This document shows, piece after piece, positions 3,376-12,300 of a stretch of DNA of 59,352 nt. The notes beneath the pieces were generated by a model. That model was not told the DNA's origin. It searched no databases and saw nothing but the letters and a program-made list of their open reading frames with translations. The position numbers were made by a program, and so were the translations under genes. Source of the DNA: a phage; the sequence record PZ564402.1; one strand, given 5' to 3'. Positions within the stretch are counted from its first letter, which is position 1, and each line of letters starts with the position of its first letter.

Positions 3376-3605
3376 CGCTTTCTCGGAAAATGGGCCGGAT
3401 CTGCCATAGCCCCGCTTTGCGAAATCAATAACTTAGCCGAAAAATCGAATTTCTCCCGTAGGGAGGCACCGAAACAGGGTGCTGCCCGGGGTGCGGGCGG
3501 AACGGCGCTTTAGCCCCTCAACCGATTGATAGTATTACGGTTATACCCGGTGGGCTGGTGCTGACCAAGTCCACGGCAGCAGGCATCAGACACAAGATAC
3601 AACTC

Positions 3606-3868
3606 GGTTACAGGAAATTCGACTTGTAACCTATCCGTAAATCCTTAATTCTACTACCTTTTATCAACTATTAGTTACAAGTTACAAGAAATAAGGGTAA
3701 ATAGGATAAGAAATAGGGATAAAACGTTGTATATTGTAGATCACATCGTCACACATTATATGTATGTATAGGGTTAGCGGCACTTGTAACCTGTACTCAA
3801 AACATGGTCAAGGCCAGTCGTGACGCGGCTTTCAGGGGTTACAAGACGATCATGCGTTTTTGTAACCT
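3606..3868. promoter_or_regulatory. AT-rich control region with multiple GGTTACAA/TTGTAACC inverted and tandem repeats (operator-like)
   Basis: Inverted pairs 3606-3631 and 3838-3868, tandem GTTACAAGTTACAAG at 3673-3690, further copy at 3784-3791; upstream of HTH gene 3925. Confidence 0.5.
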
Positions 3869-4298: not shown

Positions 4299-6881
4299 TT
4301 AAACTTCGTCATCCCACTCGCCCGGTACAACTTTACCGACGATTTTTTCCACCTCCGCGTTATGCTTTTTCAATGTTTTCTGCGCCCATTCGGAGTTAAG
4401 TTTTCCAGACTCGTCGTACGCACCTTTGACACGCTTTCTGACGTACACGCGACCGGACTTCCCGCCGAATTTCAGTACGCCGCCCGGCTTAAATCCGATC
4501 TCCATAAGCATGTTTTTGAGGCGAGACGTTTTCGGCATTTCCACATCTTCGGTTTCAAGGAAGGCGTCTCGCAACGATGGTACGAAGATGATGTCGCGGT
4601 GGACGCCCGGCGTTGTCCCGTCACGCAGCATTGATACTACCGCACCTTCTACCCCATCGTTTGACGCGTCGGCCATGATGGAAAACGCTTCGGTGTCCTG
4701 CGGTGCATGGCCTTTGTGGTCAAAGTCCTCGCTGATCTCCCATTCGAGGAACCATTTCTTCAATGCAGGGACGTGGTTGTCGATCGCCCGGTACACGTTC
4801 TTGAAGAAGCGCGAGCGTTCCGCCTTCGACCCGTATACCCGCTCCATGTCCAGATGATTTTCGGCCTGCGTGGACACTACCAGATAACGACGCTGGTTTT
4901 CATCGAGTGGCAACGCGTTAAAGTGGTTAGTGAACATCATTTTACTACTGGTGTTCACGACAACCTTTGGCTTGCGGCCTTTCGGTTCCACCTGAAAACG
5001 GTCATTGGTGATATACTCTTTCTGCCGCTCGATGGCGCTGTAGCGGTCGCCCTTGTCGTACACCTCTTCCACGATTTTCAGGATGTCGCCTTCCGCCCAA
5101 TCACTGAAACGGCCGTTCATCACGGAGTTTGAAACGTAGCCCACGTTTTTGCGTCCTAACATGGCTGACATGAGCACGCCTAACGTCGATTTACCGGAAC
5201 CGTGCGCGCCGCGAATCAGTAACGAGTAGTTGATGCGCTTCGTCGGGTGCTGGATAATCCACGCCATCCAGTCCATAACGTATCGGCGTTCCTTGTCATT
5301 CGGGAAAAGCACGACAAAGAAGTCCTTGATGATCTCCACGGCCTTTTTATCGTACGGCGAAAGCTCGTCGGCAGGCTCCGGAATGGAATCCGGGTCGAAA
5401 GAGTTGAGCCACGTCTTCCCGGACTCGTCTATAAAGAATTCCGGGCCATTTACCCCCGGCTTCGGCTTCCACAAGGTTTCTTCCATATCACCGTGCATCG
5501 CCGGGTAGTACATGGCGTCACAAACGATAGGGATCGGCCTGACCAGCGATGCAAAAGTGATAGGTTTAATCGTTTCTTCCTCGAATTTGCACATATTTGC
5601 GTACGCGAAGTCGAAAGCGCCCTTAGAAATGTAAGAACCGGACGATTTATCGATCAAACAGTCATTTTCTTCCGAAAAAACGAATTTTTTCAGCCAAATC
5701 GGCATTTCTTTTGAGCCATAATCGAAGCCTAATTGCTCCTTTTTATCGTTCGCAGTCATCCGGTAGTTCTTGATCCGCAGGTACGCTTCGGCCGCAACTT
5801 GGACGATCGTCTTACGGGTCATGCCGAAAATCTGCTCTTTGCGGAAGGATTCGGCCCATGCGTTCCAGTCTTTCTCGTCAGTACACTCGGCAAACGCCTC
5901 GCGGTACTCGATGGCCTTCTCTTCCTGCTCGGCTTTCTCGATTTCACGAACTTCGGTGATGATCGAGCCTAAAGTTACGAGGCGGGATGCGTTGTGCGCG
6001 AAGCCCTTATCCCACTTGTATTCGAAATCACCATCGTCGAAGTTGTGCGCCTGCATGGCCCACTCGCGGGCAATGGATTTCGCTTCGTCCTGATCCCGGC
6101 AGGAGATTTGCAGCGCGGCCAGCACCTTGATGTAGTTCTCGTAATCCTCCGGATTCGGGTACTTCATGACAAGATCGCGAAGGTCTTCGTACGTGCCGTC
6201 CCATTTCCGGATACCCGCCGTTGCCGCCCAATCCTCTTCGTCCGCCGTTCCGATGGCTTCGTACCCGTTCATCGGGCGCTTGACCATCGTCCAGCCCTGC
6301 TCTTTGGCGTAACGGTCAAACTCCGCCGCGATTTCACGCGCGGTATCGAGGCTGATCTCTTCGAGGTCGAAATCGGCTGCGTTGTTCAGCGGATTCTCGT
6401 CGTCGAGCCAGTAATAATCGCGGTTGGTGTCCGGGTGGATACCGTACGCGACGAACTGCTGGCCGTCGGCGAGGATTTCAACCGCATGGCGCTGGCCGAA
6501 GTCGTCTTCCCATACGCCGGACTTCACTTTCGAGAATGGCGATTCCGTCCGGAACAGAAAGAGTTTCTTTGGTGCCCGTCCGATACGACATGGCGCGCGG
6601 CCAACATTCTCCAGCACCCAATCCGCCATATGCGCCACGGCGTCTTCATCGTAAACGTCGATGTCAACCGCCGGGGTGTATTTGGTCAGAATCCCGATGC
6701 CGTTTTTCGTGTAGCGTTCCGCCCAACGCTGGATCTGCTCCTTATCGTTAATTGTTCTTTCCCAATCCTTACCGATGGGGCGTTTACCCGCGCCCTTCTT
6801 ATCGGCGTCCGGGGCGTAGATAGGTACAACGGTGTACCCATTCCCCCAAAGCGTTTCGCCGTACTCTTGCCAGTAATTCAT
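4299..6881 (-). CDS. bifunctional primase-polymerase / SF3 (D5-like) helicase, 860 aa
   Basis: N-terminal prim-pol motifs (VDIDVYDED, YGIHPD), Walker A GAHGSGKST in C-terminal half; acidic C-terminus WDDEV. Confidence 0.8.
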   Translation of the reverse strand: MNYWQEYGETLWGNGYTVVPIYAPDADKKGAGKRPIGKDWERTINDKEQIQRWAERYTKNGIGILTKYTPAVDIDVYDEDAVAHMADWVLENVGRAPCRIGRAPKKLFLFRTESPFSKVKSGVWEDDFGQRHAVEILADGQQFVAYGIHPDTNRDYYWLDDENPLNNAADFDLEEISLDTAREIAAEFDRYAKEQGWTMVKRPMNGYEAIGTADEEDWAATAGIRKWDGTYEDLRDLVMKYPNPEDYENYIKVLAALQISCRDQDEAKSIAREWAMQAHNFDDGDFEYKWDKGFAHNASRLVTLGSIITEVREIEKAEQEEKAIEYREAFAECTDEKDWNAWAESFRKEQIFGMTRKTIVQVAAEAYLRIKNYRMTANDKKEQLGFDYGSKEMPIWLKKFVFSEENDCLIDKSSGSYISKGAFDFAYANMCKFEEETIKPITFASLVRPIPIVCDAMYYPAMHGDMEETLWKPKPGVNGPEFFIDESGKTWLNSFDPDSIPEPADELSPYDKKAVEIIKDFFVVLFPNDKERRYVMDWMAWIIQHPTKRINYSLLIRGAHGSGKSTLGVLMSAMLGRKNVGYVSNSVMNGRFSDWAEGDILKIVEEVYDKGDRYSAIERQKEYITNDRFQVEPKGRKPKVVVNTSSKMMFTNHFNALPLDENQRRYLVVSTQAENHLDMERVYGSKAERSRFFKNVYRAIDNHVPALKKWFLEWEISEDFDHKGHAPQDTEAFSIMADASNDGVEGAVVSMLRDGTTPGVHRDIIFVPSLRDAFLETEDVEMPKTSRLKNMLMEIGFKPGGVLKFGGKSGRVYVRKRVKGAYDESGKLNSEWAQKTLKKHNAEVEKIVGKVVPGEWDDEV

Positions 6882-7237
6882 TCAAGGATTTCCCCTGTTT
6901 CGCTGTCAGTTTTGATCCAAGAAGGGTTAGTCAGCCAGTGGGGGCGGATTCCGGTAAGCGGTACCGCGCTGCAAACTTTTTCGGCCACTGCGCTCGATAC
7001 GTTATTTTGAGTCGCCCATAAAAGGGTCGAGTAGCTTACTTTCGCGGCCTTCGCTAAGTCCGCCATTCTGGCATTCGGATCGATCTCTAATGCCGCTTGT
7101 GTCATTAGAAATTTGACCTTCATCCGGTCGTCGTTTAAAGCCCATTTCGGAAATCGCATAGCCCAAGCCCTCGCATGTGTGCGTGTTATAGATTTGCGGA
7201 TAGTATATCCGGCCCGTAAATCTGTCAAGCTGGCCAT
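6878..7237 (-). CDS. putative HTH DNA-binding protein (119 aa)
   Basis: ATGA-coupled upstream of primase; HTH-like LAKAAKVSYSTLLWATQNN. Confidence 0.45.
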   Translation of the reverse strand: MASLTDLRAGYTIRKSITRTHARAWAMRFPKWALNDDRMKVKFLMTQAALEIDPNARMADLAKAAKVSYSTLLWATQNNVSSAVAEKVCSAVPLTGIRPHWLTNPSWIKTDSETGEILE

Positions 7238-7316
7238 TTAGTCTGGTACCGCAACCATCTTACGTCCGGAATACAAGGCTTTGAGGTACCCAATCAAAAA
7301 ATTTCGAAAAAAGTGT

Positions 7317-7346
7317 TTGACAGTTATTCGGCGTTTGGGCCATACT
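7317..7346 (+). promoter_or_regulatory. putative sigma70 promoter (-35 TTGACA, 18-nt spacer, -10 CATACT) with upstream A-tracts
   Basis: Consensus -35 in divergent intergenic region upstream of 7399. Confidence 0.4.
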
Positions 7347-7398
7347 TCATCCCGTCAACACGACACGACCTTTTAAACACTTAACGGAGTAGAAAATT

Positions 7399-7818
7399 AT
7401 GTCTGGTATCTTCGAACAACTGCTGGCTGAACAACAAAAAACTAACACCCTGCTGGAAGGCGTTCTGGCAGCATTGAAAGGCGGCGCGGTGAATACCTCC
7501 GCTGACGCTGGTAGCGAAACCACCGAAAAAACCACCACCACCACCAAAGGCGGTGCTAAGGGCGGCGCGAAAGGCGGTGCAGGTAAAACCGAAACTAAAG
7601 CGGCCAAGCCTAAGCACACCAAAGACGAAGTAGTCGCTGCTGTCGTCGCGGTTAAAGACGCGTTCGGCGCGCCGGAAGCCAAGAAAATCACCGCTCACTT
7701 CGGCCTCGCGAGAGTCGCGGAAGCGAAGGAAGAACACTTCGACGAAATCGTTGAAATGTGTGAAGCCAAACTGGCTGAAAAAGATGAAGGCGGTAACGGC
7801 GAAGAAGACGACGTTTAA
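7399..7818 (+). CDS. low-complexity Lys/Gly/Thr-rich protein with acidic C-terminus (139 aa)
   Basis: GGAG RBS; KGGAKGGAKGGAGK repeats; ends EEDDV; followed by hairpin terminator. Confidence 0.6.
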   Translation: MSGIFEQLLAEQQKTNTLLEGVLAALKGGAVNTSADAGSETTEKTTTTTKGGAKGGAKGGAGKTETKAAKPKHTKDEVVAAVVAVKDAFGAPEAKKITAHFGLARVAEAKEEHFDEIVEMCEAKLAEKDEGGNGEEDDV

Positions 7819-7833
7819 TCTTTCGCCCCGCAT

Positions 7834-7858
7834 CGGCTCCCTTCGGGGGGCCGTTTTT
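7834..7858 (+). terminator. putative intrinsic terminator/attenuator (CUUCGG hairpin + T5)
   Basis: GGCTCCCTTCGGGGGGCC followed by GTTTTT immediately after 7818 stop. Confidence 0.45.
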
Positions 7859-7880
7859 CACAACCAACGGAGAGGAAATT

Positions 7881-8210
7881 GTGACCAGCATTACTTTCAC
7901 CAACGTTTCTACTACAGGCGGCGCAGTTCTCGCGCGCACTTGGGCGGAGTTTCGTTTTCAAATCGGTGATCGCGATGTGCTGTTCAGAGTTACTTCCCCT
8001 GTTTCGAAACACGAAGCGCCGCTGCTCGTAACCCACGCATCATCCGGTCTTCGAGTATGCGACGTCTGGTGGGACGACGTGGCGAAGACTCGCTTTAACG
8101 CAGGCCGCAATAATTACAGCGGGGCAGGCGCTAGGGCATTAGTAGCGACGATTGAGCGAGTCGGCCAACACCGATTCCTCAACGCGATAAAGGCGTATCC
8201 GAATGAGTAG
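7881..8210 (+). CDS. hypothetical protein (GTG start, 109 aa)
   Basis: GGAGAGGA RBS 5 nt upstream of GTG. Confidence 0.5.
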   Translation: MTSITFTNVSTTGGAVLARTWAEFRFQIGDRDVLFRVTSPVSKHEAPLLVTHASSGLRVCDVWWDDVAKTRFNAGRNNYSGAGARALVATIERVGQHRFLNAIKAYPNE

Positions 8211-9543
8211 TAAGTCACTGTTAGTCCGCATCATGCGGGAATTCGGCGGTGGCGGCCACTCAATCTTCGCGCCTTCTGCGTCAGCGCGGTGGATAGCATG
8301 TTCCGGGAGCCTGATAGCCGGGCTTTTCGAGCATGACGAAACCATCTACGAGGCGGCGGAAGGCACGGTGGCCCACGGAATCGCCGAACAATGGCTGCGA
8401 ACGGATGTCCGGCCAACCCATTTAATCGGCACTGTCGAGACGATCACGGAAGGCGATGTCAGTCATGACATCCCGATCACGCGGTCAATGCTCGACGCAG
8501 TTCAGGAATACGTGGACTGGTGCCGATTTGAAGAGGGTGAAATGTTCACGGAAATTCGGGTATGGTTCACAGACCTGATGCCGCGAGCAAACCCGGATGA
8601 ACCTGACGAAGAACCGGAAGAGTTTGTCGCTCAGGGCGGAACGGCGGATAACATCATCATCCGTGACCGCACCTTGATCGTGACCGACCTGAAATACGGT
8701 ACTGGTGTTCAGGTTTTCGCGGAAGGGAACCCGCAGGCGCTACTTTACGCGTACGGTGCGTACCGCGCTTTTGCGGATGAATACGAGTTTGACCGTATCA
8801 TCATCCGGATTGCGCAGCCGCGACTCGACCACTTCGATACGTGGGAAATCACGCTTGACGAGTTGTTGGAGTTTGCGGAGTACGCCCGGGAGCGGATTGC
8901 AGCGGCATGGAGCCTTACCGCGCCGCGCCGCGCATCCCTGAAAGGGTGTCGCTTTTGCCGGGCAGCACATAACTGCGCAGCGATAGCGTACATGATGGAA
9001 TGTGCAGTGGGTGGGGATGTGGAATTCCTTGAAGCCGAATTCGGGGAGGAAGAAATGTCAGTATTGCGTGATGCGCTGGCGCAGGAGTATAAATTCCGGC
9101 GTGCGCAGTTCGGAAACCTGACAACCGAGCAGATGGCTAAGATCCTGCCATACCGCAAGGTGGTCGAAAACTGGTTCTCGCGCCTTGACTTCGAACTGGA
9201 ACGCCGCGCAATGAACGGTGAGAAGGTACCGGGTCAAAAGCTGGTTGAGTCGCGGACAAACCGCAAATTCGCCAACGAGAAAGATGCGATCGCGTTGTTC
9301 AAGTTCCTCGACATCGAAGAGGACAAGTACATCGAGCGCAAACTGCGTACTCCGGCGCAGATGGAAGAAGTGCTTAGGGATGAATTGGGCGTGTCCCGGG
9401 CTGGCGCGCCAAACATTATCGCGGGGATCGTTTACAAGCCGGAAGGCAAACCGACACTGGCACCGCTGACCGATAAGCGGCCACCACTGGACGGCAAGTA
9501 TTCCGGGGCGTGGGACGATGAAGATGATGACGACGAAGTGTAA
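8203..9543 (+). CDS. PD-(D/E)XK (RecB/Cas4-like) nuclease, 446 aa
   Basis: Motifs LIVTDLKYG (D/ExK) and QALLYAYG (QxxxY), Cys cluster CRFCRAAHNC; acidic C-terminus WDDEDDDDEV. Confidence 0.65.
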   Translation: MSSKSLLVRIMREFGGGGHSIFAPSASARWIACSGSLIAGLFEHDETIYEAAEGTVAHGIAEQWLRTDVRPTHLIGTVETITEGDVSHDIPITRSMLDAVQEYVDWCRFEEGEMFTEIRVWFTDLMPRANPDEPDEEPEEFVAQGGTADNIIIRDRTLIVTDLKYGTGVQVFAEGNPQALLYAYGAYRAFADEYEFDRIIIRIAQPRLDHFDTWEITLDELLEFAEYARERIAAAWSLTAPRRASLKGCRFCRAAHNCAAIAYMMECAVGGDVEFLEAEFGEEEMSVLRDALAQEYKFRRAQFGNLTTEQMAKILPYRKVVENWFSRLDFELERRAMNGEKVPGQKLVESRTNRKFANEKDAIALFKFLDIEEDKYIERKLRTPAQMEEVLRDELGVSRAGAPNIIAGIVYKPEGKPTLAPLTDKRPPLDGKYSGAWDDEDDDDEV

Positions 9544-9588
9544 ACCCGTAAAACCGTAGAAAGTAAACCCGTAAAACAGTAAACCGAG
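9541..9588 (+). repeat. five tandem degenerate GTAAA(A)CC repeats in leader of SSB gene
   Basis: TAAACCCGTAAAACCGTAGAAAGTAAACCCGTAAAACAGTAAACC directly upstream of RBS GAGGA. Confidence 0.5.
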
Positions 9589-9597
9589 GATATTAAG

Positions 9598-10194
9598 ATG
9601 GCCGAGAAATTAGTCCCTGCGAAGAAAGTCAAGAATGGCGTGCTGTATAAATCTGGTCACATCAAGATTTCTAACGTACGTGCTTCTTACCCGCACCTCG
9701 ATAAGCCGTACGGCGGCGAAGACGGCGGCGAGCCGAAATACTCGCTGACACTTTTGATGCCGAAAGAAAGCCACGGCGAGATCGAGAAAATCATCCGCGA
9801 GCAGATCGAAGTCACCAAGAAGAACCACAAGACAGGCGCGCTTAAAGTGGCTCCGTCCATGTTGTTCATCAAAGACGGCGACACCGATTTCCCGGACAAA
9901 CCGGAATGCGAAGGGATGTGGGTTATCTCAGCGCGCGAAAGCAAACGCCCGGATGTGTATAACATCGAGCGCGAAGAGTTGACTACTTCTTCCGAAATTC
10001 TGGAAGAGATCTACGGTGGTTGTTGGGTGTCTGTCGTCATCCGTCCGTGGTCGCAGGAAAACAAATTCGGCAAACGCGTCAACGCCAACCTGATTTCCGT
10101 TCTCAAACGCAAAGACGACGAGCCGTTCGGTGAAGGTCGCGTTGACACGTCTGATGCGTGGGATGAAGACGAAGATTGGGAAGACGAAGTGTAA
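9598..10194 (+). CDS. ssDNA-binding protein, T7 gp2.5-like (198 aa)
   Basis: N-terminal ASYPHLDKPYGG...YSLTLLMP resembles gp2.5 YAYIAKPDYG...YKVDLTIP; acidic C-terminal tail DAWDEDEDWEDEV. Confidence 0.6.
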   Translation: MAEKLVPAKKVKNGVLYKSGHIKISNVRASYPHLDKPYGGEDGGEPKYSLTLLMPKESHGEIEKIIREQIEVTKKNHKTGALKVAPSMLFIKDGDTDFPDKPECEGMWVISARESKRPDVYNIEREELTTSSEILEEIYGGCWVSVVIRPWSQENKFGKRVNANLISVLKRKDDEPFGEGRVDTSDAWDEDEDWEDEV

Positions 10195-10220
10195 TTCACG
10201 CCCTCGGGCGGTAATTCAAG

Positions 10221-10244
10221 GCCCGCCGTGTGCGGGCTTTTTTC
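10221..10244 (+). terminator. rho-independent terminator (GCCCGC-CGTGT-GCGGGC + T6)
   Basis: Perfect 6-bp stem and T-tract right after SSB gene. Confidence 0.65.
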
Positions 10245-10260
10245 ATATAGGAGCGTTGAC

Positions 10261-12300
10261 GTGACCGATTGCATTAATCTTGACTATGAATCCAGAAGCC
10301 GGGTGAACCTTAAAACGAACGGCTTCGACCGTTATTCGAATGACGAATCGACGAAAGTGCTGATGGGCGCGTGGTCGATCAACGGCGGCGCGGTGCAGCA
10401 CGTAGACCTTCATCGCGGCAAAAAGTTGCCCGGCGAACTGCGTGAAGCGCTGGAAGACCCGGACGTGGAGAAGTGGGCCTTTAACGCTCAGTTCGAACGC
10501 GTGATAACCCGCCGGGTGCTCGGCATTAAGACGCCGTACAAAGCGTGGCGCTGTACGATGGCGATGGCGTATATGCTTGGCTTCGCGGGCGACCTGCTGT
10601 CGGTCGGAACACAATTGGGATTGCCGGAAGACAAACTGAAAGACCCGGAAGGCAAGCGCCTGATCGACCTGTTCAGCAAGCCGCAGCGCGTCACGAAGAA
10701 AAACCCATTTGAGTGGCGCAACGAAGCGACCGACCCGGAAGACTGGTGGCACTTCTGCCGATACAACGTGCGAGACGTTGAAACCGAACTGGCGATTAAA
10801 GCGCGCCTGATGCGGTACCCGATTCTGGACGCCGAGTGGGATATGTACGCGCTGGATCAGTTCATCAACGACACTGGCGTGATGATTGACCGCGAATTCG
10901 CGTACTCGGCGCTGGCACTCGCAGAAGCGCGCAAACCGCAGATTATCGAAGAAATGGCCGACATTACTGGCCTGAATAATCCAAACTCCCCGGCGCAGTT
11001 AACACCGTGGCTCAAAGAGCGCGGCTATCCGTTCAGTGACCTCCGCAGCGACACCGTCAACAAAGTTATCCGTGAAGCCGATGAAAACGGCGTTGACCCG
11101 GACGCGATCCGCGTGCTGCGGATGCGACTGAACAGCGCGAAAAACTCCCTGTCCAAATACCAGACCATGATTGACGCGGCTGGCGAGGATGGCCGTTTTC
11201 GCTTCTCGCTGCAATTTGCCGGGGCGAGTCGTACGAACCGTTGGGCTGGCCGTCGAATCCAGACCCAAAACCTGCCGAGAACGCCGAAGCTGATTGAGGA
11301 CGTGACCGACCTGTCCATCGTCAACAAGATGATCCACCAGCGTGACCTTGATGCGCTGACGCTGTATGTGGGCGAGCCGATGGACGCGCTGGTGGGCTGC
11401 ATCCGCTCCGCCTTCATCCCGACGCCGGGCTACAAGTTTATCGTTGCCGACCTGTCTTCCATCGAATCCGTGGTTATCGGTTGGCTGACGAACTGCAAAT
11501 GGTTCATGGATACGCTGGCGGCCAAGCACGACCTTTACCGTTCATTCGCGGCCCACTGGCTGCACCTGCCGTACGAAGAAACGAAACCGCACCGCTCGAA
11601 AGCCAAACCTGCAACCCTCGGCGCGGGCTATCGCCTCGGCGGCGGCCACATGGATGACAATGGCAAGAAGACCGGGCTGTGGGGTTACGCTGAAAACATG
11701 GGCGTACACATGACGCAGAAAGAGGCAGAAGAGTCGGTACAGGCGTTCCGCGACCTTTGCCCGGAAATCGTTCAGGCATGGTATGGCCTCGAAAACGCGG
11801 TGTTCAAGGTTATCCGCACCCGTCAGGCCGTCGTGTGGGGCTGTCTGATTATCGAATACACAAAACCATTCCTGACCATCCGTCTGCCGTCTGGACGCAA
11901 AATGTATTACTTCCGCCCGCGTCTGGTCGAGCGCCAGATGACGGTTCAGAAGGGGCCGAAGAAAGGCGAGAAGTACACAAAGACCAACTTCCAGTACGAA
12001 GGCAAGGTGGAGGGCAGTGGCACCAAGTGGGGCAAGATCTACAGCCACGGCGGTAAGCTGGTGGAAAACATCGTTCAGGCACTGGCGCGCGACGTGCTCG
12101 CCGAAGGTCTGAAAAAGGCGCACCGCATGGGCTTCCGCATCGTCATGCACATCCACGATGAAATCGTAACCGAAGTGCCAGAAGACAGCCCGCTGACAGT
12201 GGACGACCTGATCTCCTGCATGGTGGCCGAACTGCCGTGGGCCGAAGGTCTACCGCTTGGCGCTGCCGGGTGGGAAGGATATTTCTACCGTAAGGATTAA
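10261..12300 (+). CDS. family A DNA polymerase with 3'-5' exonuclease domain (GTG start)
   Basis: Exo I DxE (LDYESRS), polymerase motifs RRIQTQNLPR, KPATLGAGY, HIHDEIV; AGGAG RBS 7 nt before GTG; ATG at 10228 rejected as it sits in the terminator hairpin. Confidence 0.85.
   Translation: MTDCINLDYESRSRVNLKTNGFDRYSNDESTKVLMGAWSINGGAVQHVDLHRGKKLPGELREALEDPDVEKWAFNAQFERVITRRVLGIKTPYKAWRCTMAMAYMLGFAGDLLSVGTQLGLPEDKLKDPEGKRLIDLFSKPQRVTKKNPFEWRNEATDPEDWWHFCRYNVRDVETELAIKARLMRYPILDAEWDMYALDQFINDTGVMIDREFAYSALALAEARKPQIIEEMADITGLNNPNSPAQLTPWLKERGYPFSDLRSDTVNKVIREADENGVDPDAIRVLRMRLNSAKNSLSKYQTMIDAAGEDGRFRFSLQFAGASRTNRWAGRRIQTQNLPRTPKLIEDVTDLSIVNKMIHQRDLDALTLYVGEPMDALVGCIRSAFIPTPGYKFIVADLSSIESVVIGWLTNCKWFMDTLAAKHDLYRSFAAHWLHLPYEETKPHRSKAKPATLGAGYRLGGGHMDDNGKKTGLWGYAENMGVHMTQKEAEESVQAFRDLCPEIVQAWYGLENAVFKVIRTRQAVVWGCLIIEYTKPFLTIRLPSGRKMYYFRPRLVERQMTVQKGPKKGEKYTKTNFQYEGKVEGSGTKWGKIYSHGGKLVENIVQALARDVLAEGLKKAHRMGFRIVMHIHDEIVTEVPEDSPLTVDDLISCMVAELPWAEGLPLGAAGWEGYFYRKD

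Follow-up and report, generated by a model that had tools for sequence, protein, structure and literature searches.

A phased tandem repeat ahead of the single-stranded DNA-binding protein gene of Chi-like phages as a candidate site of autogenous translational control

Introduction

[quoted passage not shown] This question is raised by the phage sequence record PZ564402.1, a stretch of 59,352 bp (hereafter the window) that is the full or almost full genome of a Chi-like Salmonella siphovirus (Chivirus, Casjensviridae) and in which a tandem array occupies the 54-nt intercistronic gap between a nuclease gene and the SSB gene and reaches the Shine-Dalgarno (SD) sequence of the latter. SSBs are needed in stoichiometric amounts, and excess and shortage both harm replication. 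To our knowledge, gp32 of phage T4 is the worked-out case of how SSB levels are set among the SSBs of tailed phages. An initial annotation of the window had suggested a comparable arrangement, in which the repeat would serve the phage SSB as a gp32-like translational operator. Here, we propose that the array is a phased lattice on which surplus SSB would bind its own mRNA and occlude the RBS, resulting in autogenous repression, a prediction that we regard as plausible while stopping short of calling it probable.

Results

On the + strand, positions 9540-9585 read GTAAACCC (unit 1, 9540-9547), GTAAAACC (unit 2, 9548-9555), GTAGAAA (degenerate unit 3, 9556-9562), GTAAACCC (unit 4, 9563-9570), GTAAAACA (unit 5, 9571-9578) and GTAAACC (unit 6, 9579-9585). 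Exact matches to GTAAAMC thus start at 9540, 9548, 9563, 9571 and 9579 (n=5), with the degenerate unit at 9556 and a spacing of 7-8 nt. The initial annotation had placed five tandem copies of GTAAA(A)CC at 9541-9597, immediately upstream of the SSB RBS; the location and the five exact units hold, whereas the array starts at 9540 and includes a sixth, degenerate unit. What had been termed the leader of the SSB gene is better described as an intercistronic spacer, since unit 1 contains the TAA stop codon of the nuclease gene (9541-9543, + strand). Tandem Repeats Finder recovered the array with a period of 8 (5.6 copies, score 46) and with a period of 15 (2.9 copies, score 57), and a super-period of 15-23 nt is confined to the genus Chivirus.

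The array comprises 22 A, 11 C, 7 G and 6 T residues (48% A, 13% U and 24% C), and the local GC content is 39% compared with 56% for the genome. GTAAAMC has 12 matches outside the array on both strands of the whole 59-kb window, and GTARA reaches six occurrences per 50-nt stretch at the array as opposed to three at most anywhere else in the window. A search of the whole window for other motif clusters, or for 4-mer chains phased at 7-9 nt, returned none of like strength, indicating that the array does not represent a regulatory motif used throughout the genome. The gene for the major tail protein, another abundant product, has a 13-nt spacer with an SD sequence only and lacks such a leader. 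Together with the uniqueness of the motif cluster, this plain leader suggests that the array is not the general high-expression device of the phage. We also considered the possibility that the repeated TAA/TAG triplets are selected as stop codons in all three frames, which was ruled out by the arrays of phages MA11 and Salvo (CGAAACC and CGAA, respectively), as these lack them.

The spacer was compared in 12 members of the Casjensviridae, namely Smarc5, SAP012, Redjac, KPN U2874, MA11, Kokobel1, pPM_01, AhMtk13b, JC01, BcepNazgul, phiAxp-2 and a second Chivirus, with Xylella phage Salvo added later. SSB identity to the Chi-like window ranges from 89% down to ~34% across these relatives, and tandem 7-8-nt units are located between the nuclease stop codon and the SSB SD sequence in all 12 of them and in Salvo, with the SD positioned relative to the array as in the window. 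The sequence of the units varies, including GTAAAACA/GTAAAACC in SAP012 (8-9 copies), CCGTAACT in JC01 (five perfect copies), CCGTAGAC-type units in BcepNazgul, CGAAACC/GAAAACCA in MA11, CCGAAA/CCGTTTAA in phiAxp-2 and a CGAA core in Salvo, and the copy number across genera is about 2-9.

A scan of IMG/VR contributed 79 further loci, and removal of near-duplicates resulted in 58 SSB leaders, which were compared with 342 control leaders of other open reading frames (ORFs) of at least 100 aa taken from the same loci. A 4-mer recurring at least four times within 50 nt was detected in 31% of the SSB leaders compared with 3.5% of the controls, many of which overlap coding sequence, and a 4-mer recurring at least five times in 21% compared with 0%. 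The best autocorrelation period was 8 in 28 of the 58 SSB leaders and in 39 of the 342 controls. Successive 4-mer copies were spaced by 8 nt in 49 cases, by 9 nt in 26 and by 7 nt in 10 (Mann-Whitney p ~1e-13), although SSB leaders are related by descent and the 58 leaders are therefore not independent events. Iterative refinement produced the family motif G-U-A-A-A-(A/C)-C-(G/C), with most information at U2, A3, A4, A5 and C7; its hits are 8 nt apart in 52 cases and 7 or 9 nt apart in 18 cases each. This motif occurs 2.78 times per SSB leader and 0.28 times per control leader, a ten-fold enrichment that is somewhat circular because the motif model was trained on SSB leaders; the 4-mer statistics are free of this circularity.

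In AT-rich distant loci, the nuclease stop codon is 100-350 nt away (2 kb in one case) or other genes lie in between, and the repeats still adjoin the SSB SD sequence. Examples are L077-L080, L083/L090, L065/L068 and L085, where the repeats are found downstream of promoter-like sequences and often of a small hairpin, as judged by eye. Since it is the SSB SD sequence that the repeats accompany when the nuclease gene is distant, they are a feature of the SSB leader and not of the nuclease 3′ end. Based on these comparisons, the array appears to be a feature of the Casjensviridae-type clade and of scattered AT-rich lineages. As a feature of the whole Pfam family it was rejected, because spacers are mostly short and array-less in distant DUF2815 homologues from bacterial genomes and metagenome-assembled genomes (at most 35% identity) and in Staphylococcus phage phi12 and Bordetella phage BIP-1. 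A separate observation, made by eye only, concerns distant DUF2815 SSB genes with long upstream spacers (L069-L074, L076, L077-L084, L087 and L177), in which the A-rich units follow a promoter-like sequence and a small hairpin on the 5′ side (GUC-GAAA-GAC in L077 and GTAGC-AATTA-GCTAC in L082, for example), a layout that recalls the T4 gene 32 operator with its structured element followed by unstructured repeats.

The leader of T7 gene 2.5 (L092/L093, record positions 9107-9157, promoter phi2.5) has a GGGAAGACUCCC hairpin followed by GAGAAACC-AAAC-GAAACC-UAAAGGAG, in which GAAACC is present twice and resembles the MA11-type units. Among ~50 distinct T7-like leaders, this repeat is kept in close T7 relatives only; its absence from divergent gp2.5 lineages (55-85% protein identity) led us to reject the array as a feature of all gp2.5-type SSBs.

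Within Chivirus, the 1.3 kb around the array share 99% identity with phage Chi and 97-99% with ~100 further records. Of 100 matching GenBank phage records, 93 carry the 65-mer of 9536-9600 (array, SD sequence and ATG) unchanged, whereas flanking coding 65-mers located 30-100 nt to each side are identical in 15 of 99 and 9 of 101 records. The better conservation of a non-coding spacer than of its coding flanks points to selection at the nucleotide level. None of the 40 full-length Chivirus matches listed, which span 1301 or 1298 nt, departs in length by a repeat unit; where IMG/VR copies were examined, a codon in the acidic tail of the nuclease accounts for the 3-nt difference. An exact-pattern scan of IMG/VR yielded no Chivirus copies beyond four. 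Several GenBank records that bear the name of a Staphylococcus, Listeria or Enterococcus phage, such as Staphylococcus phage SA1 and Listeria phage LM 4-14-1, hold 97-98% identical Chivirus sequence and are probably mixed or misassigned assemblies.

The leader is largely unstructured. Its 73 nt have a predicted minimum free energy (MFE) of -3.6 kcal/mol, with 179 of 200 shuffled sequences folding more strongly (z = +1.07), and the 221-nt context folds less stably than 200 of 200 shuffles (z = +2.16). Sliding 46-nt segments over the array have an MFE of 0, as do 0.22% of such segments across both strands of the genome, and 58-nt segments (-0.6 kcal/mol) are among the least structured 0.14% of the genome. 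Family-wide, the mean leader MFE is -8.5 kcal/mol for SSB genes and -18.5 kcal/mol for the controls, and a difference of +4.1 kcal/mol remains after regression on GC content (p = 6e-10). A scan of 9300-9800 against Rfam 15 at a permissive E-value returned chance-level matches, with the best scoring 18.2 bits compared with a gathering threshold of 47.9.

The product of the downstream gene (9598-10194, + strand, ATG at 9598, 198 aa) had been called an SSB in the initial annotation, which is confirmed by a match to PF10991 (Enc34_ssDNA-bd, formerly DUF2815; E=8e-31) and by a nearly identical 196-residue match to Enc34 ORF6, for which crystal structures exist (5ODJ/5ODK/5ODL; 5ODJ E=5e-117). The protein has a T7 gp2.5-like oligonucleotide/oligosaccharide-binding (OB) fold with an acidic C-terminal tail. 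In the crystal of Enc34 ORF6 with (dT)35, eight nucleotides and a ninth phosphate are visible per monomer, with bases 1-3 and 4-6 forming two stacks capped by Trp150 and Tyr156, bases 7-8 buried, and base-specific hydrogen bonds at positions 3, 7 and 8 (PMC5686142). The authors, who note that sequence preference was never measured, modelled a head-to-tail filament on a continuous strand (PMC5686142). A site size of 7-8 nt was given for gp2.5 in a single-molecule study, with an equal figure cited for Enc34 (PMC10359462). The period of the array (mode 8, range 7-9) matches this published 7-8-nt footprint of the SSB monomer.

All genes of the locus are on the + strand. A small ORF from the ORF list (7881-8210) is followed by the gene for a DUF2800/PD-(D/E)XK nuclease (8203-9543; Pfam PF10926, E=1.6e-70, plus PF12705), by the array of six 7-8-nt units (9540-9585), which is defined by sequence, repeat finding and comparison with relatives, and by the SD sequence GAGGA of the SSB gene (9586-9590), which abuts the last unit and lies 7 nt ahead of the ATG. 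The terminator scan placed an intrinsic-terminator-like hairpin with a T-run after the SSB gene (10218-10246; scan site 10218-10240), and 3′ of it is the gene for a family A DNA polymerase, apparently starting with GTG at 10261 behind AGGAG. The hairpin appears to mark the SSB gene as the final gene in its transcription unit, ahead of the GTG-initiated polymerase gene, and this layout would yield far more SSB than polymerase.

A scan of 6500-10600 for sigma-70 promoters and terminators found none at the nuclease-SSB spacer, the closest promoter-like site being at 7317-7346 and the closest terminator-like sites at 7834-7853 and 10218-10240. Given that no promoter-like site is nearby and no terminator separates the nuclease and SSB genes, the array is most likely transcribed within a polycistronic mRNA. 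Divergent sigma-70-like matches are present at 7200-7346, with TTGACA-17-TACTAT on the - strand (7228-7200) and TTGACA-18-CATACT on the + strand (7317-7346), and the latter is the likely start of the transcription unit ending after the SSB gene. A transcriptional operator at the spacer was also considered and is unlikely, as the promoter scan was empty there.

The acidic C-terminal tails of the nuclease (encoded at 9502-9543) and of the SSB (10153-10194) co-vary between genera (loci L001-L012 and L176). The nuclease/SSB pairs include DDDDEV*/WEDEV* in the window, DDEEV*/DDEEV* in SAP012, DDDDEV*/DDDDEV* in Redjac, MDDDL*/DEDDL* in MA11, WDDDEI*/WDDDEI* in AhMtk13b and ADDGL*/DNGGL* in BcepNazgul, and the last one or two residues are common to both tails in 8 of 13 pairs. 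This suggests that the two tails may dock on one partner. In T7, the tails of gp2.5 and gp4 dock on the T7 DNA polymerase.

Two further features of the genome were recorded. A 306-nt non-coding, AT-rich gap at 3520-3820, which ranks with the least structured parts of the genome, contains GTTACAAG-like boxes in both orientations (~3608, 3625, 3674, 3681 and 3786) and two tandem copies of AAATAGGGATAAG at 3699-3722, and is a candidate operator cluster or origin region. The ORF at 7399-7818 (phrog_7721, unknown function) has a low-complexity centre rich in Thr, Gly, Ala and Lys (TTTTTKGGAKGGAKGGAGK) that matches tandem repeats at 7531-7580.

Discussion

Given the unstructured leader, the lack of a nearby promoter-like site and the tie between the array and the SSB SD sequence, we consider that the array most likely acts in the mRNA. 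When free, the leader would present ~46 nt of A-rich, unfolded GUAAA(A)CC units ending at the SD sequence, giving the SSB gene an open and efficient initiation site of its own, separate from that of the nuclease gene. Once SSB is in excess of the available ssDNA, each 7-8-nt unit of the leader would take up one monomer, and cooperative spreading along the lattice would extend to the SD sequence and the AUG, such that 30S binding would be blocked. The window SSB is accordingly predicted to bind RNA, to prefer the array sequence and to repress translation. In a stricter form of the proposal, which we regard as possible but doubtful, the operator is phased and sequence-specific, with each 8-nt GUAAAACC unit seating one SSB monomer and an in-register filament covering the SD sequence. 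One may speculate that the register has A at position 3, AAA stacked at positions 4-6 and CC in the buried pocket of positions 7-8, a candidate that would align with the base-specific contacts in 5ODL.

The gp32-like operator of the initial annotation thus gains from several observations, namely that position and period are conserved while the sequence drifts, that the period of 7-8 nt equals the footprint of an SSB monomer, that the leader is among the least structured parts of the genome, and that the T4 operator likewise has an unstructured stretch with UUAAA/UAAA repeats beside the ribosome site. It loses in that the T4 pseudoknot has no counterpart here, and in that a plain unstructured enhancer would cover most of the same facts. 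Autogenous repression through the array also has to be weighed against several points in addition to the partial circularity of the motif enrichment. As the leaders are related by descent, the constancy of the 8-nt period may go back to a single ancestor instead of being dictated by the footprint. Some Casjensviridae-like loci, as well as DUF2815 SSB genes with at most 35% identity, have short spacers with 0-2 units, so that the array is not obligatory for the Enc34-type SSB family, and the lack of conservation of the T7 leader repeat in divergent lineages leaves a feature spanning the gp2.5 superfamily unsupported. RNAalifold on 12 genera predicted 0 pairs, and hence no conserved hairpin or pseudoknot, upstream of the array. 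In our literature search, neither RNA binding nor autoregulation was found reported for gp2.5/Enc34-type SSBs, and T7 gp2.5 has been reported to prefer GC-rich over AT-rich ssDNA (PMC10359462), a preference that does not favour A-rich units.

The facts that an unstructured enhancer would cover are considerable. As an enhancer or standby element only, the A-rich, structure-free repeat would keep SSB initiation open, possibly via ribosomal protein S1 and with no SSB feedback, serving a stoichiometric protein made at a far higher rate than the upstream nuclease, and slippage would be the easiest source of unfoldable sequence. Consistent with this, the leader is unstructured and A-rich, a strong SD sequence and the ATG follow directly after the array, the terminator after the SSB gene and the GTG start of the polymerase suit a high relative SSB output, and recent slippage is indicated by the perfection of the SAP012 and JC01 repeats. 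However, lack of structure alone predicts neither the constant 7-8-nt period nor the conserved GUAAA-C core across genera in which the rest of the unit has turned over, the abundant major tail protein is produced from a gene with a plain 13-nt spacer, and the near-complete nucleotide identity within Chivirus is tighter than a constraint on composition alone requires. S1-dependent enhancers are typically U- or AU-rich, whereas the array has 48% A but only 13% U. We therefore see an enhancer without feedback as possible, if on balance unlikely; enhancement as such is compatible with autogenous repression, since the T4 leader performs both jobs. Slippage with no function at all, i.e. neutral, microsatellite-like expansion of the spacer, would account for the variation of copy number and unit between genera and for the perfection of some arrays. 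It is highly improbable and appears close to refuted by the presence of an array in every Casjensviridae genus examined at SSB identities down to ~34%, the uniform copy number among the 40 Chivirus matches listed, the conservation of the spacer above that of its coding flanks and the ten-fold excess of the motif over control leaders.

The position of the array in an mRNA, its restriction to one gene, its lack of structure and its richness in C relative to G, with CC or UC near most unit boundaries as in a rut site, would also fit another trans-acting RNA factor, such as Rho at a rut site with phased YC, RNase E, Hfq or a phage RNA-binding repressor. This is improbable, as the invariant core is an A-tract rather than YC, YC dinucleotides are scarce in Salvo and in the AT-rich lineages, and ~50 nt of naked spacer between a translated ORF and a strong SD sequence is short for Rho. 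Hfq requires consecutive A-R-N triplets and RNase E sites carry a U two bases downstream, whereas the units lack the former and the candidate sites the latter. Since the motif is found upstream of no other gene, a repressor dedicated to it would control the SSB gene alone. An element acting in the DNA, be it a set of origin iterons, an operator with tandem 7-8-bp boxes or an ssDNA site for SSB nucleation, would be in keeping with the replication module in which the array is located, its local AT-richness and its strong conservation in the genus, and tandem boxes of 7-8 bp are read by some ribbon-helix-helix repressors (MetJ, omega type). We nevertheless judge such an element very improbable, because an operator would find no promoter-like site to act on, orientation and contact with the SSB SD sequence are kept in all lineages, including those with arrays downstream of a promoter-like site and hairpin in a long spacer, and the strands are strongly asymmetric, with A far above T. 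Neither dyad symmetry nor DnaA-box-like or longer iteron units were seen in the array, and an 8-bp period would place successive sites on different faces of the duplex.

Autogenous repression with one unit per monomer, if true, would mean that autogenous translational control is described for the first time in the T7-type SSB family, would be convergent with T4 gene 32 while lacking a structured nucleation site, and would provide a natural high-affinity RNA/ssDNA sequence for an SSB regarded as sequence-independent. If the Chi/Enc34-type SSB is controlled through the array, unrelated OB-fold families would have acquired autogenous translational control of SSBs on two or more occasions, with the Chi/Enc34 version being the simpler in that it has no pseudoknot and its lattice units equal one protein footprint. 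The classic von Hippel model is directly testable here, since the number and spacing of units can be changed and a protein-ssDNA crystal exists. The array also represents a recognisable regulatory signature for annotating Casjensviridae SSB genes and a compact, tunable leader for phage engineering. If it is an enhancer only, it would still be a conserved, previously unremarked element, although of modest interest. No description of the array was found in the literature searched on gp2.5 autoregulation, Casjensviridae repeats and DUF2815/DUF2800; the regulatory principle itself would not be new.

Comparison with known systems

Several systems share parts of the arrangement described here. The gene V protein of filamentous phages, a cooperative ssDNA binder, represses gene II mRNA by coating its unstructured leader, but it targets the mRNA of another gene, and protein and sequence are unrelated to those of the window and include no tandem units. 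S1-dependent enhancers and standby sites are unstructured sequences directly 5′ of the SD sequence that raise initiation; they are defined by composition or accessibility, whereas the array is a conserved, phased and U-poor repeat. Iterons likewise are tandem direct repeats in an AT-rich stretch of a replication module. They typically measure 17-22 bp, are helix-phased, lie beside a DNA-unwinding element and are bound by a dedicated initiator, in contrast to the strand-asymmetric 7-8-nt units of the array, which are locked to the SSB ribosome site. Tandem repeats of the heptamer TAACTGA in the 5′ regions of Beggiatoaceae and cyanobacterial genes have been proposed to act post-transcriptionally (PMC4679880). 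Unlike the array, these repeats occur at 169 sites in one genome and at many genes, are unrelated in sequence and host, and are not described as linked to an SSB (PMC4679880).

The closest parallels are the gene 32 leaders of T4-related phages. In the T4 operator, a 5′ pseudoknot precedes an unstructured RNA stretch longer than 40 nt that holds several UUAAA/UAAA repeats and the RBS, and pseudoknot and repeat stretch are both needed for repression (PMC535899). In RB49, the pseudoknot is absent and the repeats are kept (PMC535899). This leader therefore resembles the array in having UUAA/UUAAA repeats that are unstructured and without a recognisable pseudoknot, but it serves the gp32 family, no regular 8-nt phasing has been reported for it, and its own autoregulation is undetermined (PMC535899). 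As in T4 and RB69, the array lies in the 5′ leader of an SSB gene, is contiguous with the RBS, and provides at least 40 nt of unstructured, A-rich sequence composed of short (U)UAAA-type repeats, in a variant with G before UAAA and a conserved C after it. It differs in its 7-8-nt phasing, its conserved C and its intercistronic location, in which unit 1 overlaps the upstream stop codon, and it has neither a 5′ pseudoknot nor any other conserved structure (RNAalifold, 12 genera). Since, in addition, T4 gp32 is not homologous to the window SSB with its Enc34/T7 gp2.5-type OB fold (PF10991), the array does not belong to the T4 gene 32 operator family. Repression has been demonstrated for the T4 operator and is proposed from sequence for the array, to which the logic of T4, in which ssDNA first titrates the protein and the protein then spreads cooperatively over the RBS, would apply directly.

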